Shown: piece after piece, positions 7,282 through 42,722 of the stretch | Numbering within the stretch: the stretch's first letter is position 1 | Layout of the letters: every line of letters starts with the position of its first letter | Origin: an uncultured Bifidobacterium sp. | GTDB lineage: Bacteria > Actinomycetota > Actinomycetes > S36-B12 > UBA5976 | NCBI GenBank assembly: GCA_964655115.1 | Contig: CAZZKM010000001.1 | Coordinates: forward strand, 91,708-155,707 | DNA: 64,000 nt | Direction of reading: 5' to 3' | The notes under the pieces: generated by a model | Told to the model about the DNA's origin: nothing | Database searches by the model: none | Seen by the model: only the letters and a program-made list of their open reading frames with translations | Program-made: the position numbers and the translations under genes

Positions 7282-8177
7282 TATTTAGAAATTGCAACCG
7301 CAATTTGAGCAGCTAAACGAGCATTGCTTTTTACTAATGCAACATTTGCTTTTAGTGATTTACCTTTAGATTCAGAATGCATTAAACCTAATAAAAATGG
7401 AGTGACATTTTTACCAGAAACATGTTGCTCTTTAGCTAATTTCATACCTCTATCTAATATTTCTTTTTCTAATTTTGGATCAAATTCATCTGCCTTGTCT
7501 ATTGGATTAGCAATCAACACTGATTCAGAAAAGTTACTCTTTTTTCTAAATTTATATATTTCTGCAACTTCTTCAACACTTTCAACTTTTTCATTGATAT
7601 CAAAACCAGAATCCTTAATCCAAAATCCTGGAAAATCATTTGTTTTCCAACCATAAACTGGCACATGCCAAGTTTCTAATCTTTCTAAAGTAGCTGCCAC
7701 ATCCAAAATAGATTTAATTCCACTTGAGACCACCACTATTGGAATTTGAGCCAACGCTGTTATGTCTCCTGATTCATCAAATGTTTCTATTGAGCCTTTA
7801 TGTACTCCACCTAATCCACCAGTTGCAAAAGTTGATATTCCACTTAAGTGTGCAATCCAAGCAGTGCTTGCCACAGTGGTAGCACCTGATTGTTTTCTAG
7901 TTACACAATGGGCAATATCTCTAATACCAAGTTTTAAAATGTTTGAATCATTTGCAACTTTATTTAATTGATTGTCGTCAAGTCCGATGCAAATTTCTCC
8001 ATCTAAAATAGCAATGGTTGCAGGAGTCGCTCCTTGATCTATAACAACCTGTTCAATTTCTTGCGCGATTTTGAAATTATCAGGACGCGGTAAACCATGA
8101 GCAATAATTGTTGATTCCAATGCCACTACAGCTTTTTTGTTATTTAATGCGTCTTGAACTTTTGGACTTATTTTCAT
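7281..8177 (-). CDS. psuG: pseudouridine-5'-phosphate glycosidase
   Basis: 298 aa with the IndA/PsuG family signature VALESTIIAHGLPRP and GGLGGVHKG. Confidence 0.85.
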   Translation of the reverse strand: MKISPKVQDALNNKKAVVALESTIIAHGLPRPDNFKIAQEIEQVVIDQGATPATIAILDGEICIGLDDNQLNKVANDSNILKLGIRDIAHCVTRKQSGATTVASTAWIAHLSGISTFATGGLGGVHKGSIETFDESGDITALAQIPIVVVSSGIKSILDVAATLERLETWHVPVYGWKTNDFPGFWIKDSGFDINEKVESVEEVAEIYKFRKKSNFSESVLIANPIDKADEFDPKLEKEILDRGMKLAKEQHVSGKNVTPFLLGLMHSESKGKSLKANVALVKSNARLAAQIAVAISK

Positions 8178-26688: not shown

Positions 26689-28358
<1,670 letters not shown>

Positions 28359-28373
28359 TTAGTAATTAATTTT

Positions 28374-28411
28374 AAGAGGCGCTTAAATATTTAAGCGCCT
28401 CTTATTTTTTT
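28374..28411 (+). terminator. intrinsic terminator of groEL
   Basis: AAGAGGCGCTTAAAT/ATTTAAGCGCCTCTT palindrome followed by ATTTTTTTT. It overlaps the 3' end of the convergent CopC gene. Confidence 0.8.
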
Positions 28412-28887
28412 CGCATTTTTAAGAAAAAAGTAATTGCTACACCAATCGCAGCACCCAAAGATAACCATTGCAGCCAGGAAATGTTGGAATTTGATTCTGG
28501 ATTTGGAGCAATTATTGGCATAGGGGTTTCAACTACTTCTTCTACAGTAATTTGGTCTTGTTCGATAGCCAATTGATAAACCAGTTCACCATCTAGGGGA
28601 TGACCATCACTTGCAACTGTTTTATAAGCAATTGAAAAACTTGTTCCTGTTAAGTCTTGTGGAATTGAAATAAATAAATTGGCTTCTTCAATTCGAATAC
28701 TTGCTTCTACACTTCCTGATTCTGAAGTGATAGAAGCAAAAGTTCCATCCGTAATTACAGGTTCTGAAAAAGATAATTTAACTTCAGTTGGTAAAACTGT
28801 CAGCGTTTGATTTGTATCAGGTTCAACACTTACTACTTCTGTGTGAGCAAAAGAAATAGTGGGGATTAACAAAAAAGTGCTTACCAA
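28402..28887 (-). CDS. CopC-domain copper-binding periplasmic protein with C-terminal TM anchor
   Basis: 161 aa. The mature N-terminus HTEVVSVEPDTNQTLTVLPTEVKLSFSEPV matches the CopC pattern, and a C-terminal TM helix is present. The start is possibly upstream at an AUU codon (28920; see findings). Confidence 0.7.
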   Translation of the reverse strand: MVSTFLLIPTISFAHTEVVSVEPDTNQTLTVLPTEVKLSFSEPVITDGTFASITSESGSVEASIRIEEANLFISIPQDLTGTSFSIAYKTVASDGHPLDGELVYQLAIEQDQITVEEVVETPMPIIAPNPESNSNISWLQWLSLGAAIGVAITFFLKMRKK

Positions 28888-28895
28888 AAAAATTT

Positions 28896-29633
28896 TTAGC
28901 GTGTTCTTAAGATTAAGAATTGAAATCTTCCTTCCATGAAATATGTACGCGAGTACATAATTGGTTCTCCATCGCCAGCGTAGTGTATCTGTTGTAATAA
29001 AAGGAATAAATCATTAGTGGGACGTTGGTCACCCCATCCAATATTTTTATCAATTACTGCATGAACTTCTGCTAAAGCTCTTAAAGGTCGTTGATTAATT
29101 GAATCTAAACTGGAAAAAACACTTCCAGTTTTCATTTCTTCAACTACTTCTGGTGGCACTGAGGCAATATTTATGGTGTCGTATGAGTAAGCAACTGCTT
29201 TGTTATCAGCCAATACTGCTCTTTCTAAATAAAGAACTGAATCGGCATTATCAAGTTGAAGTTTCTCTATTTCTTGTTTGTTGGCAGGCCTGATTACTGC
29301 AGTTTTGTATTCCATTCCTGGGCTATATCCAAGTTCACTGATTGTTTCTGACATGGATCTAAGTTCATTTAGTCCAGTAGGTATGGCTCTTCCAAAATCA
29401 TTTACATAAGTTCCTGAACCATGACGAATATCGACCAGCCCTTGATACTCCAATGTTTTAAGAGCGGTGCGAACTGTGACTCGAGAGACTTTGTAGGTAG
29501 AAGCTAATTCAGATTCACTATGAATTTTTTCTCCCGGATGCCATTCTTTGTTAAGAATTCGTCGACGAATGTCATCGCTAATGCGACGGGTGAGACTAGC
29601 CCTTGCCCCAAACTGCTCTGGAGAGCTACTCAT
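28896..29633 (-). CDS. GntR/HutC-family transcriptional regulator (wHTH + UTRA effector domain)
   Basis: 245 aa with SESELASTYKVSRVTVRTALKTLEYQGLV and a C-terminal UTRA-like domain. Divergent from the mtnA-like operon. Confidence 0.85.
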   Translation of the reverse strand: MSSSPEQFGARASLTRRISDDIRRRILNKEWHPGEKIHSESELASTYKVSRVTVRTALKTLEYQGLVDIRHGSGTYVNDFGRAIPTGLNELRSMSETISELGYSPGMEYKTAVIRPANKQEIEKLQLDNADSVLYLERAVLADNKAVAYSYDTINIASVPPEVVEEMKTGSVFSSLDSINQRPLRALAEVHAVIDKNIGWGDQRPTNDLFLLLQQIHYAGDGEPIMYSRTYFMEGRFQFLILRTR

Positions 29634-29715
29634 ATAGACCCCATTTTCATTTCTATTTGATAACGCTTTTCCTTAGGGAGTTGACAATTTACACGATATC
29701 TATGAGGCTATTCCC

Positions 29716-29736
29716 AATAGTTGTAGGACAACTATT
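29716..29736 (+). promoter_or_regulatory. palindromic operator, copy 1 (candidate GntR/HutC site)
   Basis: AATAGTTGT-AGG-ACAACTATT, a perfect 9+9 inverted repeat 22 nt upstream of the mtnA-like TTG start. A TTGACA box lies at 29681-29686. Confidence 0.6.
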
Positions 29737-29758
29737 GACTAACAAATAAGGATGGAAG

Positions 29759-30799
29759 TTGAGCGCAGATATAAGAGCCATTTCTTGGGTAGATGATGGG
29801 TTGACCCTTATTGACCAAACCAAATTGCCACACGCAGAAATAAATTTAAACATTAATACTGTTGATCAATTGGTTGAAGCAATTCAAAAACTTTCAGTCA
29901 GAGGTGCACCTGCACTTGGAGCAGCTGGTGCTTGGGGAGTAGTTGTCGCGATGCGGCAAGCTCAAAAAGAAAATTGGAACCAAGAAAAATTAAACAAAGA
30001 AATTTTAAGAATCAGAGATGCAAGACCAACTGCAGTTAATTTAGCTTGGGGTGTAGACAAAGTAAGTCATTTTATTTCTGAAGGTGTTGAAAAAGTTTTA
30101 GAGCAAGCAAATCAAATTGCTAAAGAAGATGAAGAGGGCAATCGAAAAATGGGAAAGTTTGGTTCAGATTGGATTGAATCAAAAGTAAAAAATAGACCAA
30201 TTAGAGCTTTGACGCATTGCAACACAGGATCTCTTGCTACTACAACTTGGGGAACTGCATTAGGTGTTATTAGAGAAATGAATTCAAGAGGAATTTTAAA
30301 ACATGTATTTGCAGATGAAACAAGACCATTATTACAAGGTGGAAGATTAACTGCTTGGGAATTAGCACACGAAAATATTGAACATTTTGTAATTGCAGAT
30401 GGCGCTGCTACAAGTATTATTGCTCGCGGTGAAGTTGATGTTGCATTAATAGGTGCCGATCGAGTTGCTGCAAATGGTGACACAGCAAATAAAATCGGAT
30501 CTTTTGCAGTTGCACTTGCTTGTAAATATGCAGGTATTCCGTTTGTAGTAGTAGCACCAGAATCAACTGTTGATGTGTCTACTAAATCTGAAAAAGATAT
30601 TCATATTGAATATCGGGATGAAAACGAAATATTAAGTTTAAATGGACAAAGAATTTCTCCATTGAAATCAAAAGGACTAAATCCAGCTTTTGATGTGACT
30701 CCTGCTGAGTTGATTTCAGCATTAGTTACAGAAAAAGGTGTTTATGAAATCAATAAGGGCGTTACCCCAGAATCGAAGATGGCAGGAATTAACAAGTGA
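29759..30799 (+). CDS. mtnA: eIF-2B/MtnA-family aldose-1-phosphate isomerase (5-methylthioribose-1-P / 5-deoxyribose-1-P isomerase-like)
   Basis: 346 aa, LIDQTKLPHAE...VRGAPALGAAGAWG...HCNTGSLAT...ADETRPLLQGGRLTAWEL...GADRVAANGDTANKIG. TTG start with RBS AAGGA. Confidence 0.8.
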   Translation: MSADIRAISWVDDGLTLIDQTKLPHAEINLNINTVDQLVEAIQKLSVRGAPALGAAGAWGVVVAMRQAQKENWNQEKLNKEILRIRDARPTAVNLAWGVDKVSHFISEGVEKVLEQANQIAKEDEEGNRKMGKFGSDWIESKVKNRPIRALTHCNTGSLATTTWGTALGVIREMNSRGILKHVFADETRPLLQGGRLTAWELAHENIEHFVIADGAATSIIARGEVDVALIGADRVAANGDTANKIGSFAVALACKYAGIPFVVVAPESTVDVSTKSEKDIHIEYRDENEILSLNGQRISPLKSKGLNPAFDVTPAELISALVTEKGVYEINKGVTPESKMAGINK

Positions 30800-32784
30800 C
30801 AATTCCTAAACCACTTCAAGATTTAGTTGAAAGATCAAAATTTTTAGGCAACAATCAAGATTTTGTTGTTTATGGTGGGGGAAATACATCGGCAAAAGGT
30901 GAAATAGTAGATCACTTAAAGAGACCAAAAAATGTTTTGTGGGTCAAAGGTTCAGGCGCAGACATGATGAATGCTGAAGCTGTTGATTACCCTGCACTTT
31001 ATTTGGATGAATTGATTGCTTTAAAGCAATTTGAAAAATTAAGTGATGAGGAAATGACTGACTTAGTGGGGAAAGCTTTAGTTGACCCAAACAGCAGAAG
31101 ACCCTCCATTGAAACCTTGTTGCATGCATTCTTACCTTTTAAGCACATTGATCATGTGCATGCAGATGCAATTTGTGCTTTAACAAATCATAAAGATGGA
31201 AATAAAGCGGTAAAAGAAGCATTGGGTGAAAATTTTGCTTACGTTGATTGGATTCGACCTGGATTTGAACTAAGCAAACAAGCTTCTCAATTAGCAGATT
31301 CAGAAGGAATAATTTTGGCACATCATGGATTAATAGTTTGGTCTGACGATAGTGATGAATGCAAACAAAAGAATACAGATGTGATAAATAAAGTTGAAAA
31401 TTATTTATCGAGTTTAACTAAAAGACCAGAATCTATTTTTAATCACACAACCTATTCAGATGAAGAATTTGAAAATTTATTGTTATTAGTAAGAGGAAAA
31501 TTAAATAAAAAATCTAAAAAAATAATTTCAGTAGATTCAAGATTAAAAGAAACTTCAGATAGAAAAGATATAAAAGAAATAGTTCAAGCTGGAGTATCAA
31601 GTGCTGATCATATGTTGAGAATTAAACCTTGGTCTGCAGTTATAGAAAATGGCAAAAATGATCAATCCATCTTTGAATCTATAGATAAATATTCGAATTC
31701 ATACAAAACATACTTTGAAAATAATAAAAATTTATTACCTCAGGGTTATTCAATGCATGATTCAGATCCTAAAGTTTTGTTAGCTCCAGGAATCGGTGCA
31801 TTGACTGTTGGATTAAGTAAATCTGAATGCAAAATGCTTGCAGATATTTCTTTTCATACTCACAAAACTGCTTCAATGGCAAAAGATGCTTTTGGCAACG
31901 TTGAAGCTTTGCCTGATTCAGAAGTTTTTGGTTTTGACTACTGGCCAATGGAACTTTACAAGTTAGCAAGTAGACCTGCACCAAAGAAATTTGCCGGACA
32001 TGTCTTCATAGTTACGGGTGCTGGAAGCGGTATAGGTCGTGGAATAGCAGTTGAACTTGCCAAGCAAGGTGCAAGTTTAGTTTTAGCAGATCTTGATGCA
32101 AAAGGACTTGCAACTGTAGAAAGTGAAATAAAAAACTACAAAGGATCTAGTCCTCAGATTATTCAAGGGGATCAATCAGATGAAAAAGTTGTTAAGCAAA
32201 CGGTTTCTGAAGCGATAAAAACTTTTGGTGGAATTGATGGAGTGGTATTTAGCGCAGGGATCGCAGTCACAGATAGTTTGCAAGATTTGACAATTGAAAA
32301 ATGGAATAAAGGATTAAGTGTTAACTTAACTAGTTCATTTTTATTAACTAAATATGCGATGAAGGCATTAACCAAACAAAATTCAGGTGGATCACTTGTT
32401 TATATCGCAAGTAAAAATGCATTTTCACCAGGAATTGGTTTTGGAGGATATTCAGTAAGTAAAGCAGGAATGATTCAACTAATGCGCATGGCTGCATTAG
32501 AGGGTGGATCTCATCAAATCAGATCCAATGCAATTAATCCTGATGCAATTTTTGATAACAGCAAATTATGGGAAGGAGGAATCAGAGAGGAAAGAGCTAG
32601 AGCTCATGGCATTAAACCTGAAGAGTTAGAAGATTTTTATGCCAAGAGAAATATTTTAAAATCCCATGTTTCATCAATTGATGTTGCGAATATGACAAGC
32701 TTTTTACTTTCAGATGATTCCGCCAAAACAACAGGCTCGGTCATTGCCGTCGACGGCGGAGTGGCTGCTGCATTTCCGCGCTAA
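30796..32784 (+). CDS. bifunctional class-II aldolase / short-chain dehydrogenase (RhaEW / RhaD-aldolase-ADH family)
   Basis: 662 aa. N-terminal aldolase/adducin-type domain (YGGGNTSAKG, HVHADAI) and C-terminal SDR (VTGAGSGIGRG, YSVSKAG). The GTG start overlaps the mtnA stop (GTGA). Confidence 0.85.
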   Translation: MTIPKPLQDLVERSKFLGNNQDFVVYGGGNTSAKGEIVDHLKRPKNVLWVKGSGADMMNAEAVDYPALYLDELIALKQFEKLSDEEMTDLVGKALVDPNSRRPSIETLLHAFLPFKHIDHVHADAICALTNHKDGNKAVKEALGENFAYVDWIRPGFELSKQASQLADSEGIILAHHGLIVWSDDSDECKQKNTDVINKVENYLSSLTKRPESIFNHTTYSDEEFENLLLLVRGKLNKKSKKIISVDSRLKETSDRKDIKEIVQAGVSSADHMLRIKPWSAVIENGKNDQSIFESIDKYSNSYKTYFENNKNLLPQGYSMHDSDPKVLLAPGIGALTVGLSKSECKMLADISFHTHKTASMAKDAFGNVEALPDSEVFGFDYWPMELYKLASRPAPKKFAGHVFIVTGAGSGIGRGIAVELAKQGASLVLADLDAKGLATVESEIKNYKGSSPQIIQGDQSDEKVVKQTVSEAIKTFGGIDGVVFSAGIAVTDSLQDLTIEKWNKGLSVNLTSSFLLTKYAMKALTKQNSGGSLVYIASKNAFSPGIGFGGYSVSKAGMIQLMRMAALEGGSHQIRSNAINPDAIFDNSKLWEGGIREERARAHGIKPEELEDFYAKRNILKSHVSSIDVANMTSFLLSDDSAKTTGSVIAVDGGVAAAFPR

Positions 32785-32799
32785 ACGGAAATGAAAACA

Positions 32800-32825
32800 A
32801 ACGAATAAATACAAATTTATTCGTT
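32800..32825 (+). promoter_or_regulatory. 11-bp hairpin between the aldolase/SDR and SBP genes
   Basis: AACGAATAAAT-ACAA-ATTTATTCGTT, followed by the RBS AAGGAGAAGG of the SBP gene. Confidence 0.4.
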
Positions 32826-32841
32826 AAAAGAAGGAGAAGGA

Positions 32842-33942
32842 ATGGTAAGAAATAAAAGCAAAGCTTTGGCTGGTATTTCAGTCGTTGCTGCGTTACTTCT
32901 TGCTGCATGTGCACAAAGTGGTAGTGATACCGCTGCACCAGCGGCAGAAGAAGGAACTGTTGAAGAAGCAACTGCAACTAAGCCTGCACCATTTGATGCT
33001 GGCCCAGTAAAAATTGCAATTGTTCAAAACAGTGGTGCTGGAGATTATTTCCAACAATGGACAAACGGTGCTAATCAACAAGCTGAAGCAATCGGATTTG
33101 AAGTTCAAATTTATGATGCTCAAGCAGATAACGCAAAACAAGCAACAGATATGGAAACTGCTATTGCTTCAGGAGTAGCAGGCATCATTGTTGATCACGG
33201 TCAAAAAGACACTATGTGTCCATTGATTAAAAAAGCAACCGATGCAGGAATTCCTGTAGTTGTTTATGACGTAGTTGTAAATGATTGCGCACCAGATGCA
33301 GTTCAAACACAACAAAGTGATGCATCACTTGCACAAGCTGTGTTGGATCAAATGGCTGCAGATCTAGGTAAAGATGCCAAAGTCGGTTATGTAAACGTTT
33401 TGGGTATTGCACCTCTAGATCGTCGTCACGTTGTATGGGAAAAAATTGTTGCTGACAACAATTGGACCCAATCATTCTTCGTTGGAAAATTCACCAACGC
33501 AGTTGCAACAGATAACGCACAATTAGTTGATGCTGCACTTAAAGCTAATCCAGACGTAGTGGGAATTTTTGCTCCATACGATGAATTAACAAAAGGTACA
33601 GTTTCTGCAATTGAACAAAACAATCTACAAGCTTCAATCAGAGCTTATGGAATTGATATTTCAAATGCTGATATTGAAATCATGACCAAAGAAGGAAGTC
33701 CATGGACTGCAACTGCAGGTACTGATCCAAACGCGATTGGTGCAGCAGTAGTTAGAAACATGGCTCTTGAACTTGCTGGTCAACTTGGAACTAAGTCAGT
33801 TGATTTCCCAGGTGTACTTATTACTGCACAATTCCTAAAGGACAATGCAGTTAAGAACATGGTAGATCTACGTGCTGCACTTCCAGAATTGAATCTTGCA
33901 GAAGTAAGTTCTGCAGATTGGATTCCAGCAGTTAAGTTCTAG
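32842..33942 (+). CDS. CUT2 (ribose/RbsB-like) sugar ABC transporter substrate-binding lipoprotein
   Basis: 366 aa with signal peptide and lipobox LLLAAC, and a type-1 periplasmic-binding fold (IAIVQNSGAGDYFQQ..., GIIVDHG). Confidence 0.85.
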   Translation: MVRNKSKALAGISVVAALLLAACAQSGSDTAAPAAEEGTVEEATATKPAPFDAGPVKIAIVQNSGAGDYFQQWTNGANQQAEAIGFEVQIYDAQADNAKQATDMETAIASGVAGIIVDHGQKDTMCPLIKKATDAGIPVVVYDVVVNDCAPDAVQTQQSDASLAQAVLDQMAADLGKDAKVGYVNVLGIAPLDRRHVVWEKIVADNNWTQSFFVGKFTNAVATDNAQLVDAALKANPDVVGIFAPYDELTKGTVSAIEQNNLQASIRAYGIDISNADIEIMTKEGSPWTATAGTDPNAIGAAVVRNMALELAGQLGTKSVDFPGVLITAQFLKDNAVKNMVDLRAALPELNLAEVSSADWIPAVKF

Positions 33943-33970
33943 ATTTAACTAGAAACTAAGGATAGGTGAG

Positions 33971-35479
33971 TTGATGGCAACGGCAGTTGAAGTAAGAGAT
34001 ATCTCAATGTCATTTGGTTCAAACCAAGTGCTAACTGGAGTAGATCTTGCTATCAATAAAGGACAAACCACTGCACTATTAGGTGCAAATGGAGCCGGAA
34101 AGTCAACATTGATAAAAATTTTGTCAGGAGTTTATTCATCCTTTACCGGACAAATAATTATCGATGGACAACTTGTAACCATCGACTCACCTGTCACTGC
34201 AAGAGCATCAGGAATAGAAACAGTTCATCAAAGAATTGATGAAGGTGTAATTCCTGGATTAACGGTAGCTGAAAATCTACTTTTCGAAAGAATAGTTACA
34301 GGAGATATTAAAAAAACTATTTCTCCAAATGAAGTTATTGATATTGCAAGTGAAATAGCAAAGGCATTAGATTTAAATTGGAATAATAATATCCTTAAAA
34401 AAGATGTCTTTGAAATCGGAATTGCTGAACAACAACTTTTGATATTAGCAAGAGCTCTTTCAAGAAAACCAAAATTATTGATTTTAGATGAGCCAACTTC
34501 AGCCCTTTCAGCTTCTGAAAGTCAAAATCTTTTTAAAGTAATTAAAAATTTAGAAAATCAAGGAATTGCAATTCTTTATGTTTCGCATAAATTAAGCGAA
34601 ATTGAACAAATTGCACAAAGATTAGTAGTTATTCGTGATGGAAAAATCAGAAATGAACAGAGCGCTCCATTTAGTTGGGAAGATGCTCTTAAAGAAATGT
34701 TAGGACAAGAGTCTCTAAATAAAAATAATGAATTTGATGTAGTTGAAGGAAAAGGCGTGGTATTAAAATTAAATAACATAAAACTTTTTAAAGAAAGTGA
34801 ACCTATAAATGTTGAATTTAGAAAAGGTGAAGTGACTGGAGTTATTGGCCTTCTTGGAGCTGGGAAAACAGAATTAGCAAAAATCATTTTTGGTGCTGAT
34901 AAACCTTTAACAGGTGAAATGATTCTTGAGGGAAAAAAATATGAACCAAAACATCCTGCCGAAGCTGTTAATAAAGATATATTTTTAGTCCCAGAAGATC
35001 GTGCTGCAGAATCAATGATTTCAGGTTGGAATATTAGTGAGACTTCAACGTTGCCTTTTATGAAAAAGTTTTCGAGTAGAGGTGTAATTAATAAAATAAG
35101 TGAACTTGCAAGAGGTAAAAAACTTGTTGAAGATTTAAATGTAGTAACTACATCTCATATTGCACCTGTTGATTCACTTTCAGGTGGTAATCAACAGAAG
35201 GTGGTTGTGGGCCGCTGGTTGCAAGAGTCACCAAAAATGATGATGCTGGATGAACCTTTTAGAGGTGTAGATATTGGGGCCAGAAGAGATATTTCAAAAA
35301 GAGTGAGAAATCTTGCAGCAAATGATGTAGCTGTTTTGGTTCTTGCTTCTGATGTAGATGAAATATTAGAAGTTGCTGATCGAATTATTGTTTTAGTCGA
35401 AGGAAAAATAGTTCTTGATGTAAGTTCCACAAATACATCAAAAGATAAAATAGTTAACAAAATGTCGGAGGTGGCATAA
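33971..35479 (+). CDS. sugar ABC transporter ATP-binding protein (duplicated ATPase, RbsA-like)
   Basis: 502 aa. Walker A GANGAGKST, LILDEPTSAL, and a second half with LSGGNQQKV and MLDEPFRGVD. Confidence 0.9.
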   Translation: MMATAVEVRDISMSFGSNQVLTGVDLAINKGQTTALLGANGAGKSTLIKILSGVYSSFTGQIIIDGQLVTIDSPVTARASGIETVHQRIDEGVIPGLTVAENLLFERIVTGDIKKTISPNEVIDIASEIAKALDLNWNNNILKKDVFEIGIAEQQLLILARALSRKPKLLILDEPTSALSASESQNLFKVIKNLENQGIAILYVSHKLSEIEQIAQRLVVIRDGKIRNEQSAPFSWEDALKEMLGQESLNKNNEFDVVEGKGVVLKLNNIKLFKESEPINVEFRKGEVTGVIGLLGAGKTELAKIIFGADKPLTGEMILEGKKYEPKHPAEAVNKDIFLVPEDRAAESMISGWNISETSTLPFMKKFSSRGVINKISELARGKKLVEDLNVVTTSHIAPVDSLSGGNQQKVVVGRWLQESPKMMMLDEPFRGVDIGARRDISKRVRNLAANDVAVLVLASDVDEILEVADRIIVLVEGKIVLDVSSTNTSKDKIVNKMSEVA

Positions 35480-36508
35480 ATGTCAGTAGGGATAACCAAA
35501 GAAGGTCAAGGTTTTGACACTAGAGAATTTGTTGTCAAATACGGATTTATCGTCGTAACTGTTTCACTATTTCTGTGGTTTGCCATAACAGAGCCATCAT
35601 TTAGAATGCAATCTACTTTATTTTCCATGCTTAAATTTACCTCTGTTGTAGCCATCACAGGTCTTGGTGTGACTTTAACGATGGTAGTTGGAGGATTAGA
35701 TTTATCTGTTGGCTCAGTAGCTGGATTATCAGTAACACTTTCGGCGATGACGATGGTTATTTATGCTCAAACAGGTGGAGTTGCTTTAATTGTAGTTTTA
35801 TTAGGTGGAGCTTTAGTTGGTTTGTTTAATGCATTTTTAATTGTTGTTTTAAAAATTCCAGATTTATTGGCAACATTAGCAACTATGTTTACGATTATGG
35901 GATTAAAACTTGTTCCGGTTGATGGCCAATCTGTTTCTTCAGGTTTAATTTTAAGAGATGGAAGTGTTGCCCCTGGAAAATTTACTCCCGGATTTTTATT
36001 AATTGACAGAGCCTATATTGGGCCAGTGCCACTTCCTGTTGCAATATTTTTTATTCTTGCATTTGTTGTGTGGTTCTTTTTAACAAGAACTAGGTGGGGC
36101 AGAGTCATGTATGCAATCGGCTCTAATCCAGAAGCTGCAAGACTTGCAGGTGTCAGAGTAAAAAGATATCGAGCATTTGCATATGTCATGTCTGGTGTTT
36201 TTGCATCAATTGGTGGATTAATTTTGTCTTCTCGAATTGGTCAAGGAGATATCAGTGCTGGAAATTCACTTCTTTTAGATGCAGTAGCTGTAGCTTTAGT
36301 TGGAACATCAGTTCTAGGAATTGCAAAGCCAAATGCTTGGGGCACCATTCTTGGTGCAGTACTAATTGGAATCGTGATTACTGGCTTAACTATTAAAGGT
36401 TTTCCATATTATGCACAAGATGTAGTAAAGGGATTAGTGCTTTTAACTGCTCTAATTTTCTCATTTACTTTATCTCGAAAGAAATCAAAATTCGTTCCAG
36501 CGGTGTAA
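35480..36508 (+). CDS. sugar ABC transporter permease (RbsC-like)
   Basis: 342 aa with about 10 TM helices and GGLDLSVGS. Its start abuts the ATPase stop. Confidence 0.85.
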   Translation: MSVGITKEGQGFDTREFVVKYGFIVVTVSLFLWFAITEPSFRMQSTLFSMLKFTSVVAITGLGVTLTMVVGGLDLSVGSVAGLSVTLSAMTMVIYAQTGGVALIVVLLGGALVGLFNAFLIVVLKIPDLLATLATMFTIMGLKLVPVDGQSVSSGLILRDGSVAPGKFTPGFLLIDRAYIGPVPLPVAIFFILAFVVWFFLTRTRWGRVMYAIGSNPEAARLAGVRVKRYRAFAYVMSGVFASIGGLILSSRIGQGDISAGNSLLLDAVAVALVGTSVLGIAKPNAWGTILGAVLIGIVITGLTIKGFPYYAQDVVKGLVLLTALIFSFTLSRKKSKFVPAV

Positions 36509-36518
36509 AGGAAAAAAT

Positions 36519-37745
36519 ATGGCAAATGATTACGAATATTTAAGTAAAGACAATATTTCACAATATTTGAAAAGTAAATCAGTTTTCAATAATTTAATTG
36601 ATGCCGATAATATTGTGGAATTTAACGAAGTCGGAGACGGTAATTTAAATCTAGTTTTTATTCTTAAAGATTCAAAAGGAAAAGGAGTTGTACTTAAGCA
36701 AGCACTTCCTTACGTAAGACTGGTTGGACCAGATTGGCCTATGACGCCAAGTCGAGCACGAATTGAATCTGAAACAACAATAATTCATTCAAAATTTGCT
36801 AAGGATTTAGTTCCAGAAATTTATGATTTTGATGAAGAGCGTTTTATTATCGCTATGGAAGATCTTTCTGATCATCGAGTATGGCGCGGAGCATTAAATG
36901 AAGGTTTGCGTTACGAAGGTGTCGCAAAACCATTAGGTGAGTACGTTGCTAAAACAGCATTTGGCACATCTGTATTCGGTTTGGGCCATGACAAGCATAA
37001 ACAAGAAGTTGCCAGAGCGATTAATCCAGAACTTTGTCTAATAACTGAAGACTTAGTTTTTACTGAACCATATTTTGATAATGGCCGAAACTCGGTCCTA
37101 GAAACAAATAAAAAAGATGCTGAAGATTTAGCAAATGACAAAGACATGGTTAGAGAAATAGGTTTACTCAAATATAAATTTATGACTTCTGCCGAAAGTT
37201 TAATACACGGAGATCTTCATACTGGATCTGTCATGATCAAAGGAAATGACCAAGAACAAGCAATAAGCGTGAAGGCAATTGATTGCGAGTTTGCATTCTA
37301 TGGACCACTTGGATTTGATTTAGGGGCATTAATTGCAAACTACACAATTGCAGCAGCAAGAGCTAGAGCACTTGGAAATGTTGAACAAATGAAATGGCTT
37401 TTATCATTAGCAGAGCAAACCTGGGAAGGTTTTGAATCGACAATTAGAAAGTTATGGCCAACAAGAGTAGATAAAAGAGTATTTAATGATGAAGTTTTTG
37501 AAAACTTGATTAAAACTTGGAAATCAGATGCTCAAGGTTACGCTGGAGCAAAGATGGCTAGAAGAATTGTGGGTTTAGCAAAAACATCAGATATAGAAAC
37601 CCTGGAACCAAATTTAAGAGAAGGCGCTGCACGGGCTGTGTTACAAATGGCAAGACTTTCAACTAAAGAAAGAGATTTAGGCAAATCTTGGAAAAACATT
37701 GCCCAACAATTTGAAACAATAATCGAAAAAACCGTTACGAAGTAA
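36519..37745 (+). CDS. mtnK: MtnK-family 5-methylthioribose (or 5-deoxyribose) 1-kinase
   Basis: 408 aa with EVGDGNLNLVF, the APH-type catalytic loop HGDLHTGS and IDCEFAFYGPLGFDLG. Confidence 0.8.
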   Translation: MANDYEYLSKDNISQYLKSKSVFNNLIDADNIVEFNEVGDGNLNLVFILKDSKGKGVVLKQALPYVRLVGPDWPMTPSRARIESETTIIHSKFAKDLVPEIYDFDEERFIIAMEDLSDHRVWRGALNEGLRYEGVAKPLGEYVAKTAFGTSVFGLGHDKHKQEVARAINPELCLITEDLVFTEPYFDNGRNSVLETNKKDAEDLANDKDMVREIGLLKYKFMTSAESLIHGDLHTGSVMIKGNDQEQAISVKAIDCEFAFYGPLGFDLGALIANYTIAAARARALGNVEQMKWLLSLAEQTWEGFESTIRKLWPTRVDKRVFNDEVFENLIKTWKSDAQGYAGAKMARRIVGLAKTSDIETLEPNLREGAARAVLQMARLSTKERDLGKSWKNIAQQFETIIEKTVTK

Positions 37746-37753
37746 GGAAAAAT

Positions 37754-38113
37754 ATGAAAACTCCTAGAGAAATTGCTGAATCTTATTGGAAAGCAGAATG
37801 CGCAAGGGATACTGAAGCAGTCCTTGCTCACTACCACTTGGATGCAACATTTTGTCCTCCTGGACAAGTTCTAAAAGGACACGAACAAATCAGAACTTTT
37901 TATGATTCATCAGGAGAATCTTTTCCAGGTTTAAAAGTAGATATCGTTCATGAAGTTAGAAATGGTGACGAAAGTTGCATTGAATGGTATGCGACGTTAA
38001 CGGATAAAAAAGGAAATGTTTTTAATATTCCAGGTGTTAACGTTATAAAAATTAGAGATGGAAAATTTGAATCAGTTCATGCCTATTTTGATCCAACTGT
38101 TTTGAATTCTTAA
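37754..38113 (+). CDS. NTF2/SnoaL-like small protein
   Basis: 119 aa with a ketosteroid-isomerase/SnoaL-like pattern (ESYWKAECARDTEAVLAHYHLDATF...IKIRDGKFESVHAYFD). Last gene of the plus-strand operon. Confidence 0.6.
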   Translation: MKTPREIAESYWKAECARDTEAVLAHYHLDATFCPPGQVLKGHEQIRTFYDSSGESFPGLKVDIVHEVRNGDESCIEWYATLTDKKGNVFNIPGVNVIKIRDGKFESVHAYFDPTVLNS

Positions 38114-39213
38114 TTTTCGAATCTTTCAACGCTTTTTCTTAAATTAGACGCATTCTCTAATAAATTTCCTCGGTGTAAAGCGCCACCAATCAATAAAACA
38201 GTGTCATTACCAAAAAATCCAACTAGTTCATCAATTCGATCTAACGTCATTCCTCCACCTGGGCTTGGAAAAATAGTTTTTAAATTACTAAATTCATTTC
38301 TGCAACTACGTGAAATTCGTAAGCATTCTTCTTTTGTAAAACTAAATCTTCCTCCATAATTAGGAAATACTGTTATATCTGCACCACTTAAGCGCATTAA
38401 TTTTGCTAAGACAATTTCATGATTTATTCCATGATTTGGATTCATAAATAATGAACCAAGCATCGAAGGATGACTCATTATAGGTAAATTAATTTCGTCT
38501 GAATCTGCAATACTTCTCATCGCATCAAAACTTGAAACTCCAGGTAAAACCATTAGAGCCCCTGCTCCTAGTTTTCTTGCAGTTGTTGCTTTTTCAAATA
38601 TTTGATGTGAGGGAAGGTTCACACTAGGTGCATAAACTGAATTTCTATTAAATTTTACATTTGCAGTATTAACTGCATCTGAAATTATTTTGACTCTCTC
38701 ATCCCAAGTCGCCCAAGGTTGGTTTGCCAAACTGTGGTCATCTTTTATTAAATCAATTCCTGCTTCAACCATGGTTGCTGCGATAACGGCTAATTCTTTT
38801 GCACCCAATCCCATTGGCTTTAGAGCCGTTGCCAAAATTGGTCTTGATTTTGCATTAAAAAGTTTTCTAACTCCTTGGATTCCGAAACGAGGACCTTTAA
38901 ACTTATTTAAAAAAACTTCATCAAATTGAATATCTGTGATACGGACTTCTGGAAACATTGAAACGTTACCCCAAAGTACATTTAAAAACTGGGGTAGTTC
39001 ATAACCTGTGGTGTCAAGATTAAAAGAAATCTTTATTTCAGATCTTTTTTCAGTTAACTTCTTGCTTGAAACAAAGTGAGCAACTACTTCATTTTGAATC
39101 CAGGCGGGAGCAAGGTCAAAAGGAAACTCTATAGTTTGTTCTACCCTAATTGCTTCAATTATTTCTTTTTCATTACTTGAATTAATTTCGTAAGTTACTT
39201 CGAAATTGCGCAT
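38110..39213 (-). CDS. form-IV RuBisCO-like protein (RLP), short N-terminal domain
   Basis: 367 aa with a large-subunit barrel. By-eye alignment to RuBisCO motifs: GNVSMF (GNVFGF), LKPMGL (KPKLG), IDLIKDDHSL (DFTKDDE), SHPS, PSPGGG, LIGGAL. Confidence 0.8.
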   Translation of the reverse strand: MRNFEVTYEINSSNEKEIIEAIRVEQTIEFPFDLAPAWIQNEVVAHFVSSKKLTEKRSEIKISFNLDTTGYELPQFLNVLWGNVSMFPEVRITDIQFDEVFLNKFKGPRFGIQGVRKLFNAKSRPILATALKPMGLGAKELAVIAATMVEAGIDLIKDDHSLANQPWATWDERVKIISDAVNTANVKFNRNSVYAPSVNLPSHQIFEKATTARKLGAGALMVLPGVSSFDAMRSIADSDEINLPIMSHPSMLGSLFMNPNHGINHEIVLAKLMRLSGADITVFPNYGGRFSFTKEECLRISRSCRNEFSNLKTIFPSPGGGMTLDRIDELVGFFGNDTVLLIGGALHRGNLLENASNLRKSVERFEN

Positions 39214-39218
39214 TGCCT

Positions 39219-40241
39219 TTATAGCGCCTCTGCTTTAGCAGTGCTATGAACGTCAATTTCTCTAGAAATTTCTAAATCTTTTTCAGATATGTCTAATTGT
39301 TTTTCAATTAGTCCTTCTATTGTTGAGATTAATCGTTTTGCGCCTAGATCGTATTTATTTAACAAATATTTCAAAGAAGCTCCATGGGCGTAAGTATCAT
39401 TAAGTCCAATTCGAACCAATTTTTTGCCAATTCCTTCTTCTGCCATAATTTCTGAAACCGCGGTTCCTAATCCACCAACAATTGTGTGGTTTTCCATAGT
39501 TATTACGCCATGTTTAGCAGTTTTTATTGCTTCAATAATTTGTGGATCTGTTAAAGGTTTAATTGTAGAAACGTGTAAATGTTGAATAGTTACACCTTTA
39601 TTTTTTAATGCAGGTATGGCTCGTAAAGCTTCTTCGGTTGAAATTCCAGAAGAAATTACTGTTACATCAAAACCATGACTTAAAATTCTTGCTTTATTAA
39701 ATTCCATAACCTCATTTCGAGGAAATATTCTTGAAATCTCTCCGCGAAGCATACGAATGTAAACAGGTCCGTCAATTTTATGTGCTACATCTAAAACGGA
39801 TTCAACTTCTGTAGCATCACCTGTTTCTAGAATTGTCATATTTGGGATTCCACGCATAACATTTATGTCATCAATTGCTTGATGAGTAACGCCACCTGGT
39901 GTAGTGATTCCTGGTAAAAATCCCACCATTCTCACAGGTAGATTTGGATAAGCAACTGACATTTGTAATTGATCAAGAGGTCTTCTGTAAATAAAAACAG
40001 CAAAAGTGTGAATCCAAGGCTGGAATCCCTCACGGGCTAGACCTCCAGCAAAGCCCAACATATTTTGCTCACCTAATCCAAAAGAAAAAAATCTGTCTGG
40101 GTAGGTATCTCTAAATTTTCCAACTTCGCATGAGCTAGTTAAGTCGGCAGATAAGACTACGACTTCTGGTTTGTATTTGCTCCACTTAACAAAATTTTCA
40201 ACGTGAGGTCTTTTTACAATTTCATAAGCCATTATTTCCAC
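39219..40241 (-). CDS. transketolase, C-terminal (pyrimidine-binding + C-domain) subunit
   Basis: 340 aa with FSFGLGEQNMLGFAGGLAREG, HQAIDDINVMRGIPN and NHTIVGGLG. Confidence 0.85.
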   Translation of the reverse strand: MEIMAYEIVKRPHVENFVKWSKYKPEVVVLSADLTSSCEVGKFRDTYPDRFFSFGLGEQNMLGFAGGLAREGFQPWIHTFAVFIYRRPLDQLQMSVAYPNLPVRMVGFLPGITTPGGVTHQAIDDINVMRGIPNMTILETGDATEVESVLDVAHKIDGPVYIRMLRGEISRIFPRNEVMEFNKARILSHGFDVTVISSGISTEEALRAIPALKNKGVTIQHLHVSTIKPLTDPQIIEAIKTAKHGVITMENHTIVGGLGTAVSEIMAEEGIGKKLVRIGLNDTYAHGASLKYLLNKYDLGAKRLISTIEGLIEKQLDISEKDLEISREIDVHSTAKAEAL

Positions 40242-41152
40242 CTACTTAAAAATTGCATATATTTATTTTTTTCAAAAACATTTGCAAATCTCACATAATG
40301 AAGTGCATCAGGTCTGTCTTTTAAGATTTCAATACCTTTTGTTGGATCTGTGTAACCTAAAATAACTTTTGGTTTATCACCAATATTTAATCCAGAATTA
40401 AGAATTTGCTTTATATCATTTCCATCAATTTCATCAACATCCCAACCAAAACTTCTAATACGATCTGCTAAGGGTTCAATTTTCATAACTTTATCCATTG
40501 GTCCATCTACTTGATTTTTATTTACGTCAACCAAAATTCTTAAATTATTTAGTTCATGAAACGAAATAGCACCGAGGGCTTCCCAAGTTTGACCTTCTTG
40601 GAATTCTCCATCTGACATAAAAATCCAAGTTTTCCCAGATTCACCTTTTAGCTTTCTGGCTAATGCAACACCACCGGCTTGTGAAATTGCTTGAGCAAGA
40701 GAACCGGTTGTTGTTTCAAAACCTGGAGAGTGTTCTGCGCCAATCATTTCCACTGTAGAGCCATCTTTATTAAATTTCTCTAAAGATTTTTCTGTTAATC
40801 TTTTGCATTCGATTAGCGCAGCATAAACAACCAATGCATAATGTGCAGGACTAATAAATAAGCGATCTAATTCTGGTTTTTTTTCTCCATGAAACTCTGC
40901 TCCAGTTATGTAGTCTTTAAAATTTTTGCTTGGAACGTTTACAAATTCTCTTGGGTCTAATGGTTCTTTTAAAGGAGATAAGTTGACTAATCGGGAGTAC
41001 AAACTTGCCAACATTTCAGCAGCTGAGCAAGCTTGGCTTAGATAGCCCCCGTTGTTTATTACTGTATGTTCCAGGACTCGATGTCTGATCCCATGGGCCA
41101 TAGAGGCAATTTTTGATACTTCTGTCTCTGCGACAGTTTCGGAAGTAGTCAT
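40232..41152 (-). CDS. transketolase, N-terminal (ThDP-binding) subunit
   Basis: 306 aa with GGYLSQACSAAEMLASLY, GSLAQAISQAGG and the SDGEFQEGQTWEA ThDP motif. 10-nt overlap with the C-subunit gene. Confidence 0.85.
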   Translation of the reverse strand: MTTSETVAETEVSKIASMAHGIRHRVLEHTVINNGGYLSQACSAAEMLASLYSRLVNLSPLKEPLDPREFVNVPSKNFKDYITGAEFHGEKKPELDRLFISPAHYALVVYAALIECKRLTEKSLEKFNKDGSTVEMIGAEHSPGFETTTGSLAQAISQAGGVALARKLKGESGKTWIFMSDGEFQEGQTWEALGAISFHELNNLRILVDVNKNQVDGPMDKVMKIEPLADRIRSFGWDVDEIDGNDIKQILNSGLNIGDKPKVILGYTDPTKGIEILKDRPDALHYVRFANVFEKNKYMQFLSRWK

Positions 41153-41172
41153 TGCCTCAGAATAGCAAAGAG

Positions 41173-41193
41173 AATAGTTGTCCTACAAGTTTT
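41173..41193 (-). promoter_or_regulatory. operator copy 2 upstream of the transketolase/RLP operon
   Basis: The minus strand reads AAAACTTGTAGGACAACTATT. This is 19/21 identical to copy 1, with an identical 16-mer TTGTAGGACAACTATT, and lies 20 nt upstream of the ATG. Confidence 0.55.
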
Positions 41194-41207
41194 ATTTTTA
41201 AGGGTTT

Positions 41208-41246
41208 AAGGGCTCTTGGGGATTATTCAAGAGCCCTTATTTTTTT
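41208..41246 (+). terminator. 11-bp hairpin with plus-strand U-tract between whiB3 and the transketolase operon
   Basis: AAGGGCTCTTG-N9-CAAGAGCCCTT followed by ATTTTTTTT. Confidence 0.45.
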
Positions 41247-41272
41247 GGAGGGTTATTAGGGATAAGACTTAA

Positions 41273-41572
41273 TTAGCCAGCTACTGGCATTACTTCTTTA
41301 ACTGGTGCATAGAGTGCTTCGCGATCATCTTCACTCATCGCACCCCACACACCGTATGGTTCTCTAACTTCCAATGCATGTGCAGCACATTGCTTTAACA
41401 CTGGACAAGTTGCACAGATAGATTTCGCTAAAGCAATTCTTTGCTCGCGAGCAGGTCCACGCTCACCTTCGGGGTGAAAGAAGATTTCTGGATCTTCACC
41501 ACGGCAAGCACCCTTTAATTGCCAATCCCAAAGATCGGCATTTGGTCCAGGAAGTCTGGTTATGTCGGCCAT
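41273..41572 (-). CDS. whiB3: WhiB-family Fe-S transcription factor (WhiB3/WhiD orthologue)
   Basis: 99 aa. LPGPNADLWDWQLKGACRG...CATCPVLKQCAAHALEVREPYGVWGAMSE matches, by recall, the M. tuberculosis WhiB3 N-terminus and its four Cys. Confidence 0.9.
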   Translation of the reverse strand: MADITRLPGPNADLWDWQLKGACRGEDPEIFFHPEGERGPAREQRIALAKSICATCPVLKQCAAHALEVREPYGVWGAMSEDDREALYAPVKEVMPVAG

Positions 41573-41648
41573 TTTGAGATAAATCCTTTGTTAGAGCTTG
41601 TTTTATCTAAATATACAAAATTGTTCATAACTTAGTCAATCGCCCCGG

Positions 41649-42722
41649 ATGACTAATTTTGTGAAGTCGCTCTCACTTAGGCCTCGAATAGCCAAAGTTG
41701 TTCACTTGGTGAACAATATGCTCATGGGTTTAAATCCTGAGGAAGAAAACGTCATCACCCTAGGGCTCACGGTAGCCGTGGTGGCAAGACGTGTGGGGGT
41801 AGCTCCAGCGACCTTAAGAACCTGGGAACGCCGGTATGGCCTATGTCCCACGGATAGATCTCAAGGTGGACACCGCCGATATTGCATCACCGATATTGCT
41901 CGTCTAGAAATAATGCGAAAGTTAGTTCTTTCAGGAATGCCAGCAGGAGAAGCTGCCAAAGTTGCTTTAAATACCAAAGTTGAAAATATTTCAAATATCT
42001 CTCCAGTTGATCCAAACTCATTAAGTAGCAAAATAGAAAATTTAGTTAAAACTCTTGATCATTCAGAAAAATTTGGCCATCCAGGTGGAGGTCAAGTTTT
42101 ATCGATGGAAGGTGCTTCAAGTGCGGCTAGAGGACTTGCAAAAGCTGCTCACTCATTAGATAACCAGGCATGTAATCAAATAATTGCAGCAAGTATTAAC
42201 TCTCGAGGAGTTATTTGGACTTGGGAAAATTTAATTTCAAAAGTTTTAATCGCCATTGGTGCTAAATGGGAACAAACTGGTGATGGTATTGAAGCAGAAC
42301 ATGTTTTAAGTGAAGCAATTATTGGTCAAATGAGACTTAGAGCAGATCAATTAATTGCTCCTGTAAATATTCGACCTGTATTAATGGCATCTGCTCCAGA
42401 TGAATTACATACCATTCCACAATATGTAACTGCTGCAGCTTTAGCAGAAAGAAGAATTAGTTCCAAAGTATTGGGAGCAAGAGTTCCTTACACATCATTA
42501 ATAAATTCAGTAAAAAGACTTGCCCCAGCTGCAGTTTTAATCTGGGCTCAAATTCCTGTGAAAAATATTGATCCCGAATTAGAGAACTTAAGTAATTTAA
42601 GACCAAGTCCACTCATGTTGGTGGCAGGTCCTGGATGGCCTATGCAACTACCAAGTAATTTTAAAAGAAGTAGTGATTTAACGAGCACAATTACTGCAAT
42701 TACAAATTCTGTAGGTTTATAA
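41649..42722 (+). CDS. MerR-family regulator with CarH/LitR-like B12-binding C-terminal module
   Basis: 357 aa. MerR HTH LTVAVVARRVGVAPATLRTWERRYGL, W-x9-EH motif (KWEQTGDGIEAEH), and the ExHxx(G/P) B12-ligand motif ELHTIP. The start is probably an internal ATG at 41718 or 41724. Confidence 0.65.
   Translation: MTNFVKSLSLRPRIAKVVHLVNNMLMGLNPEEENVITLGLTVAVVARRVGVAPATLRTWERRYGLCPTDRSQGGHRRYCITDIARLEIMRKLVLSGMPAGEAAKVALNTKVENISNISPVDPNSLSSKIENLVKTLDHSEKFGHPGGGQVLSMEGASSAARGLAKAAHSLDNQACNQIIAASINSRGVIWTWENLISKVLIAIGAKWEQTGDGIEAEHVLSEAIIGQMRLRADQLIAPVNIRPVLMASAPDELHTIPQYVTAAALAERRISSKVLGARVPYTSLINSVKRLAPAAVLIWAQIPVKNIDPELENLSNLRPSPLMLVAGPGWPMQLPSNFKRSSDLTSTITAITNSVGL

Follow-up and report, generated by a model that had tools for sequence, protein, structure and literature searches.

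Operators of the GntR family follow the consensus NyGTNxACNy (PMC4494728). Within the family, most HutC-family sites read GTMTAKAC, with the GT and the AC 4 nt apart, although exceptions exist among HutC-family regulators, and the consensus of the FadR subfamily is NyGTM-N0-1-KACNy (PMC4494728). The effectors of HutC-subfamily regulators are usually phosphorylated sugars (PMC4494728; see also PMC4333415 and PMC4918961). The closest parallels to the regulator analyzed here are NagR/YvoA of Bacillus subtilis and DasR of Streptomyces (dre sites), which also consist of a winged-HTH GntR domain and a UTRA domain. Common to all of them are a dyad operator fitting NyGTNxACNy, a regulator gene divergent from its target operon and a single motif repeated before several catabolic or transport operons. 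The differences concern the centre of the operator, which in our case is GT-AGG-AC (3 nt), as opposed to the 4 nt of most HutC sites (GTMTAKAC), and the predicted targets, which are MtnA, MtnK and aldolase genes together with RuBisCO-like protein (RLP) and transketolase genes, and not amino-sugar genes. The core GT-A-G-G-AC fits exactly the GTM-N-KAC of FadR-subfamily operators; regulators of that subfamily, on the other hand, have an all-helical C-terminal domain, whereas the one studied here has a UTRA domain of the HutC type.

Two shunts provide the nearest metabolic precedents. The DHAP shunt of Rhodospirillum rubrum and Rhodopseudomonas palustris comprises MtnK or MtnP, MtnA and Ald2 (PMC5893883, PMC4958253), while the MTA-isoprenoid shunt involves the DeepYkr RLP Rru_A1998, the cupin Rru_A2000 and O-acetylhomoserine (OAH) sulfhydrylase (PMC5893883, PMC4958253), the RLP Rru_A1998 being the enzyme that isomerises methylthioribulose-1-P (PMC4958253; PMC5893883).

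The locus described here lies in a stretch of 64,000 nucleotides that was analyzed in its entirety, hereafter the window. With the R. rubrum and R. palustris shunts it shares an MtnK and an MtnA above their equivalog cut-offs and a class II aldolase, and it departs from them in the fusion of this aldolase to an SDR, in the inclusion of an ABC importer and in its control by a predicted GntR/HutC repressor. With respect to the MTA-isoprenoid shunt, the RLP of the window is closest to the short RLP structure 3QFW, and sister loci pair the RLP with a full-length Rru_A2000 homologue and an OAH sulfhydrylase, whereas the window has a split transketolase in place of the cupin and the sulfhydrylase. 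The cluster is composed of the following features:

28896..29633, minus strand: GntR/HutC regulator (winged HTH and UTRA), both Pfam domains above cut-off
29759..38113, plus strand: operon 1 (MtnA, aldolase/SDR, ABC importer, MtnK, SnoaL-like)
29759-30799, plus strand: MtnA-like isomerase (TIGR00512, 414 bits, above cut-off)
30796-32784, plus strand: class II aldolase/SDR fusion (TIGR02632, 544 bits, just under the cut-off of 568)
32842-36508, plus strand: sugar ABC importer (binding protein, ATPase and permease, from family matches)
36519-37745, plus strand: MtnK-like kinase (TIGR01767, 398 bits, above cut-off)
37754-38113, plus strand: SnoaL-like protein (from family matches)
38110..41152, minus strand: operon 2 (TK-N, TK-C, RLP)
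40232-41152, minus strand: transketolase N-terminal half (TK-N), 306 aa
39219-40241, minus strand: transketolase C-terminal half (TK-C), 340 aa
38110-39213, minus strand: RLP, 367 aa
41207..41239, T-run on the plus strand: hairpin with a 14-bp stem, between whiB and the TK-N promoter

The regulator gene is divergent from the plus-strand operon, on which the minus-strand operon converges, and the cluster is flanked by groEL and copC on one side and by whiB (41273-41572), followed by housekeeping genes, on the other. The class II aldolase/SDR fusion and the SnoaL-like gene of operon 1 had gone unmentioned in the initial annotation of this DNA. The stop codons of the two convergent operons overlap at 38110-38113 (TTAA), and there is therefore no terminator between them. 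The sole strong hairpin with a T-run on the plus strand of the cluster (41207-41246) lies beyond the TK operon, so that any transcription continuing past operon 1 would run antisense to the RLP, TK-C and TK-N genes. The hairpin at 41207..41239 parts the TK operon from whiB transcription. An E-value scan of positions 28000-42000 against Rfam revealed no riboswitch or leader RNA relevant as a competing control. At 28303-28413, in the space that separates groEL and the CopC-domain gene, Rfam gives a sub-threshold match to the leader of ribosomal protein L20 (37 bits, E 2.7e-4, where the gathering score is 58.7), which probably reflects a terminator-like structure.

A putative operator is found in front of each of the two operons:

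29715..29737, plus strand: operator copy 1, a perfect 10+3+10 palindrome, CAATAGTTGT-AGG-ACAACTATTG
41173..41193, minus strand: operator copy 2, which reads AAAACTTGTAGGACAACTATT from 41193 to 41173

Copy 1 is located in the divergent intergenic region between the GntR and MtnA genes, with 22 nt between position 29736 and the TTG start of MtnA at 29759. It is thus nearer the structural operon than the regulator gene, which is 82 nt away, as is usual in such divergons (PMC4494728). Copy 2 is an imperfect dyad (left arm AAAACTTGT against AATAGTTGT, with 7 of 9 positions equal) and is separated by 20 nt, counted between 41173 and the ATG at 41152, from the 306-aa ORF of TK-N. In both cases the AGG centre points the same way with respect to the gene that follows, and the 16-mer TTGTAGGACAACTATT has exactly two matches in the window, at 29721-29736 (plus strand) and 41173-41188 (minus strand). 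The coordinates, the sequence, the 20- and 22-nt distances, the identity of the 16-mer and the common orientation of AGG had all been reported in the initial annotation, and are borne out by the letters themselves.

The same annotation had also treated the identity of the 16-mer as evidence in its own right, a use that the composition of the DNA does not sustain. The window has a GC content of 36% and contains 19 repeated 16-mers (about 14 independent pairs), where first-order Markov simulations give 6.5 on average and 22 at most; repeated 16-mers being this common, identity alone is weak evidence and is not significant per se. These figures would agree with a chance repeat, in which an AT-rich window simply yields identical 16-mers and the two copies have no common function. 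We consider such a coincidence extremely improbable, given that the two copies are the sole high-scoring matches in the window to a PWM of the site, both at promoters, and that relatives with as much as 68% GC keep the site at the orthologous promoters, in flanks that cannot otherwise be aligned. The PWM (21 columns) was built from 30 distinct sites in related sequences, including sites identical to those of the window. It assigns 28.9 bits to copy 2 and 28.2 bits to copy 1, for 9.2 bits in the next-best match of the window and maxima of 6.6-13.9 bits in simulated sequence. These only two strong matches in 64 kb each lie just 5' of the first gene of an operon. Since the PWM was built partly from window-identical sites, it is conservation in relatives that constitutes the decisive evidence. 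A duplicated segment or mobile repeat was discarded, as just 16 nt are common to the two copies and their flanks differ.

The comparison was based on 89 loci retrieved with the RLP from genomes and from metagenomes, which cover GC contents of 33-68% and RLP identities to the window from 98% down to 37% (52-55% for most of the distant loci). The presence of whiB identifies the organism as an actinobacterium, and among public sequences its nearest relatives are MAGs that carry the label Actinomycetota or Candidatus Nanopelagicales. Lineages were counted as clusters at 80% RLP identity, and 1.07 Mb of related loci were scanned with the PWM. The core RSTTGTAGGACRACT is kept at the MtnA and TK-N promoters over GC contents of 36-68% and RLP identities down to 53%, in flanks that are otherwise unalignable, and protein identities of 53-55% exclude that the related loci are recent horizontal copies of one DNA segment. 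The MtnA site is present in 21 of 21 related loci with a divergent GntR gene and absent from 23 of the 25 loci that lack GntR and in which the region upstream of MtnA is visible. The examination of related genomes that the initial annotation had proposed, and for which it took a lack of the site 5' of orthologous TK/RLP operons as contrary evidence, found both sites in each of the 15 loci with GntR and both promoters visible (8 clusters), and the TK-N site in 28 related loci in total; many of these loci, nonetheless, are close relatives, so that all such counts overstate independence and correspond to about 8 independent lineages. MtnA and TK-N promoters account for 51 of the 52 strong PWM matches in the 1.07 Mb, and the remaining one lies 5' of a PfkB kinase gene that adjoins RLP in L006. 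Loci L033-L036 have neither the GntR gene nor either of the sites. The orientation of the site, which had been described as conserved, is kept in most lineages, but it is flipped at the TK-N promoter of L006 and L008, where TTGTCC occupies the -35 position.

Gene order among the relatives takes several forms, which include a convergent operon pair like that of the window, the same pair without importer and kinase, and arrangements without transketolase. In three loci the genes are fused into a single operon, providing a further link between them. These operons are GntR<>MtnA-Ald/SDR-TKN-TKC-RLP in L074, which has a single site, in front of MtnA, and lacks one before the internal TK-N gene; Ald/SDR-ABC-MtnK-SnoaL-TKN-TKC-RLP in L087; and the minimal MtnA-MtnK-TKN-TKC-RLP in L085. 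The proposal of the initial annotation that the MtnA/MtnK/ABC and TK/RLP operons form one functionally linked regulon is supported at the sequence level by the presence of both sites in all 15 loci with GntR and both promoters visible and by the co-occurrence of site and regulator gene; given this conservation, a common switching of the two operons is almost certain. Its contention that adjacency alone would not show such a linkage also stands, for it is the conserved common operator that ties the two operons together.

Both copies are probably operators of one dimeric repressor of the GntR/HutC family, the product of the gene at 28896-29633. This protein matches PF00392 (GntR) with 67.9 bits (cut-off 27) over residues 15-77 and PF07702 (UTRA, a chorismate-lyase-fold effector domain) with 55.5 bits (cut-off 23.8) over residues 101-237. 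Against the NCBIfam equivalogs it reaches no cut-off, the best matches being PhnF and HutC at about 87 bits. In the assembly collection, 50 indexed blocks contain the exact protein. Eleven GntR orthologues (49-84% identity) show hardly any variation in the recognition helix V(S/A)RVT(V/I)RTA or in the wing RHGSG, and these DNA-reading residues match an operator core that is itself invariant. The site, AGTTGT-AGG-ACAACT, fits NyGTNxACNy. Between its GT and its AC there are 3 nt (GTAGGAC), as in FadR-type operators, and it falls short of the HutC-typical 4-nt core; other exceptions are listed for the HutC family (PMC4494728), and hence the 3-nt spacing does not exclude membership of the protein in that family. 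The half-sites TTGTA and TTGTC each satisfy GTM, which places the asymmetric AGG centre within the degeneracy of GntR-family operators. Despite this degeneracy the strict conservation of the centre is notable, since it is invariant save for one CAGTA variant (L085) and one ATG variant (L006).

The same spacing, GT-N3-AC, typical of FadR-type and not of HutC-type sites, would be expected if these were real operators bound by some other transcription factor. Two further observations agree with this alternative: L006 has sites although no GntR homologue was found in its 21 kb, and L019 and L021 keep both sites even though the adjacent GntR gene has been replaced. The latter case counts against our model; in these two loci the regulator gene might lie at another place in the genome, or the sites might be occupied by a different protein. 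Against a different factor stand the strict co-occurrence of site and regulator in 44 of the 46 informative loci and the near invariance of the DNA-reading residues. A variant of this alternative, in which the GntR protein activates instead of repressing, is at odds with the location of the sites on the -35 element and at about +1 to +21, which suits repression and neither class I nor class II activation. Taken as a whole, the alternative appears unlikely, and we retain the GntR/HutC repressor as the preferred candidate.

The location of the sites was established with respect to the following predicted elements:

29681..29709, plus strand: predicted MtnA promoter, with TTGACA (29681-29686), a 17-nt spacer and GAGGCT (29704-29709)
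29749-29753, plus strand: MtnA Shine-Dalgarno sequence AAGGA, 3' of operator copy 1
41159..41188, minus strand: predicted TK-N promoter, with TTGTAG (41188-41183), an 18-nt spacer, TATTCT (41164-41159), 6 nt and the ATG

A generic sigma-70 scan calls no promoter at either site, and the promoter positions are consequently taken from the comparative conservation of TANNNT alone. The TTGTAG -35 hexamer of the predicted TK-N promoter sits inside operator copy 2, the centre of which is at about -31 from the TK-N start codon, which is also the predicted transcription start. The succession of TTGT(AG/CC), 17-18 nt, TANNNT, 6-9 nt and ATG or GTG is found in 24 of the 25 distinct site-bearing TK-N upstream sequences, and no Shine-Dalgarno sequence is conserved among the 25. 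With TANNNT only 6-9 nt from the start codon and no conserved Shine-Dalgarno sequence, the TK-N transcript is most likely leaderless or nearly so. At MtnA, the pattern formed by TTGACA, 16-17 nt, TANNNT or GAGGCT, 7-12 nt (11 in the window) and TTGTAGGAC recurs in the window clade (with GAGGCT), in L008, L051 and L068 and in L054/L074/L089, and the operator is predicted to span approximately +1 to +21. The spacing to the start codon had been put forward as conserved between the two copies; the distances are right, but their likeness is coincidental, because the 20-nt spacer holds a -10 box at TK-N and the 22-nt spacer a Shine-Dalgarno sequence at MtnA. Equal start-codon spacing was thus dropped as evidence for a common mechanism.

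Given that the TTGTAG half is in the -35 position at TK-N, with a conserved spacer of 17-18 nt to TANNNT, the conserved sequence might be taken for a promoter element, such as a -35-like hexamer read by a dedicated sigma factor, instead of a repressor site. This interpretation is very unlikely. The sequence is a dyad and occurs in either orientation (flipped in L006 and L008); at MtnA it lies 3' of the TTGACA-17-TANNNT/GAGGCT promoter and 5' of the Shine-Dalgarno sequence; and in L033-L036 it is lost along with the GntR gene while the TANNNT boxes stay.

The positions of the two sites, on the -35 element of TK-N and at about +1 to +21 of MtnA, suit repression, and the regulatory model that we favour is that of a GntR/HutC repressor common to both operons. 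The effector-free repressor would bind RSTTGTAGGACRACT at both sites. At TK-N, where the site overlaps the -35 hexamer of the presumably leaderless promoter, it would exclude RNA polymerase, and at MtnA a repressor covering approximately +1 to +21 would block initiation or promoter escape. Copy 1 would probably also repress the divergent regulator gene, in a case of autoregulation. Both operons would then be released at once when an intermediate of the pathway occupies the UTRA domain; the effector is likely to be a sugar 1-phosphate, for example 5-methylthioribose-1-P, 5-methylthioribulose-1-P or one of their 5-deoxy analogues. As a result, importer, kinase, isomerase and aldolase/SDR would be made along with the RLP/transketolase pair. 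The binding itself, the choice of repression over activation, the effector and the transcription start sites are all predictions that we infer from sequence.

A number of variants of the site and of its surroundings were observed among the relatives. In L019 (12770-12790) and L021 (12932-12952) the TK-N site is unaltered, while the MtnA site is substituted at a position that does not vary elsewhere (TTGTAGGCCAAC); the place of the GntR gene beside MtnA is taken by a sequence whose end resembles the C-terminal part of a tyrosine recombinase (...MLGHSD...). L006 and L008 have, at about 7900-8020, an additional and weaker site, AAGTAGGACAACTAAC (AGTTAGGACAACTAAC in L006), in front of a DeoC/LacD-type aldolase and of a small divergent cupin that does not belong to the Rru_A2000 type. 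L006 also has a variant site, GTTGTATGACAAC (L006:12048-12068), 5' of its PfkB kinase gene; xylose-isomerase-like and Dak1 genes are found further along, and the MtnA module is absent. A two-mismatch variant, AGTTGCAGTACAACT, is present at L085:5651-5671, with no adjacent GntR.

Different dyads, also conserved, are found 5' of MtnA in close relatives without GntR. One of them, TTCAAGACCTTGAA, belongs to the L044 group (within L044-L079, with MtnA-Ald/SDR-RLP operons), and another, ACAGTATTCTGT, to L025-L031. The RLPs of L054 and L089 are more than 80% identical to those of the L044 group, yet these two loci have kept GntR and its site. Regulators thus appear to have been swapped among near relatives.

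Three further sequence features concern coding regions or the surroundings of TK-N. A half-site-like string, AAAACTTGTAGGACATG, occurs inside the SnoaL-like coding sequence of one clade (L014:10606, L019:4635, L020:11331, L021:4797, L022:11331, L023:1963 and L024:6284) and does not occur in the window; it probably reflects conservation of the encoded peptide (KLVGH) and not an operator. In the high-GC loci L004, L005, L007, L058 and L082, a second half-site-like string of the form TTGTA(G/C) overlaps the TK-N -10 box (ACTTTGTAGCCT), 23 nt after the first, and could be an auxiliary box or simply -10 context. In L002, L004, L005 and L007 a divergent ORF starts some 115 nt (100-120) from the TK-N start on the opposite strand, and the intergenic region that it has in common with TK-N holds the operator. 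Judging by eye from its N-terminus, this ORF looks like a candidate sugar kinase of the xylulokinase type (FGGY).

RLP is associated with MtnA in most relatives, as it is in the window. Among solved structures, the RLP of the window is best matched by 3QFW (218 bits, E 1.6e-63, over the full length and with the KDDH motif in common), which we take to be the DeepYkr RLP of R. palustris; the scores are 133-167 bits for MtnW-type structures and 115-121 bits for Photo RLPs. The transketolase is a split chain, with PF00456 (ThDP-binding N-terminal) on the 306-aa protein and PF02779 and PF02780 on the 340-aa protein, and the best solved structure for TK-N is 6YAK, also a split-chain transketolase. 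The best NCBIfam scores of the transketolase halves are 150 and 191 bits, for a cut-off of 488, and the dxs (DXP synthase) model gives 147 bits, for a cut-off of 466; both equivalog cut-offs are thus far from reached.

Loci without transketolase encode an orthologous RLP, 56-65% identical to that of the window, which is divergent from an operon for OAH sulfhydrylase, a CoA-binding protein and a cupin of the Rru_A2000 type (L025, L027-L031, L038-L043, L047, L050, L009 and L073). The sulfhydrylase of this operon matches TIGR01326 with 596 bits, above cut-off, and the cupin is a full-length match to Rru_A2000 (E 9e-39). No locus among the relatives examined has cupin and transketolase together, and the window contains no homologue of the cupin or of MetY (OAH sulfhydrylase). 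The small cupin divergent from TK-N in L006/L008 was set aside as an instance of coexistence, since it is not of the Rru_A2000 type. As no locus has both, transketolase and cupin look like alternative partners of the same RLP, which suggests that the transketolase acts on the RLP product. Together with the minimal operon of L085, this pattern also suggests, by inference, the order MtnK, MtnA, RLP and transketolase.

On this basis we put forward, tentatively and as a possibility that is rather less than probable, that these abundant, uncultured and mostly aquatic actinobacteria possess a branch of methylthioribose/5-deoxyribose salvage not yet described, marked by the common operator, in which the RLP would be followed by a dedicated split transketolase. 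In such a branch, a DeepYkr-type RLP would isomerise the MtnK/MtnA product to a 1-substituted xylulose-5-phosphate, and the split transketolase would then cleave this compound or transfer part of it, a step that would replace the cupin methylsulfurylase and OAH sulfhydrylase route of Rhodospirillum. The mutual exclusion of transketolase and cupin and the minimal MtnA-MtnK-TKN-TKC-RLP operon of L085 are in agreement with this proposal. The literature searched yielded no description of an RLP-transketolase-MtnA/MtnK cluster and, for a transketolase variant in 5-deoxyribose salvage, only work on a promiscuous transketolase that makes 7-deoxysedoheptulose in Synechococcus.

The regulation postulated here is in itself ordinary and of a textbook kind, with one GntR-type repressor, one dyad motif and two operons. 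Its value resides in the functional evidence that it supplies, as it ties an uncharacterised split transketolase and an RLP to a module for sugar import, with kinase, isomerase and aldolase, whose sugars would be methylthioribose-like or 5-deoxyribose-like, in a lineage whose sequences recur in many environmental metagenomes. It also provides a defined predicted operator and a candidate repressor, the effector of which should be an intermediate of the pathway, and the transketolase-type and cupin-type loci offer a natural comparison that points to the substrate of the transketolase.
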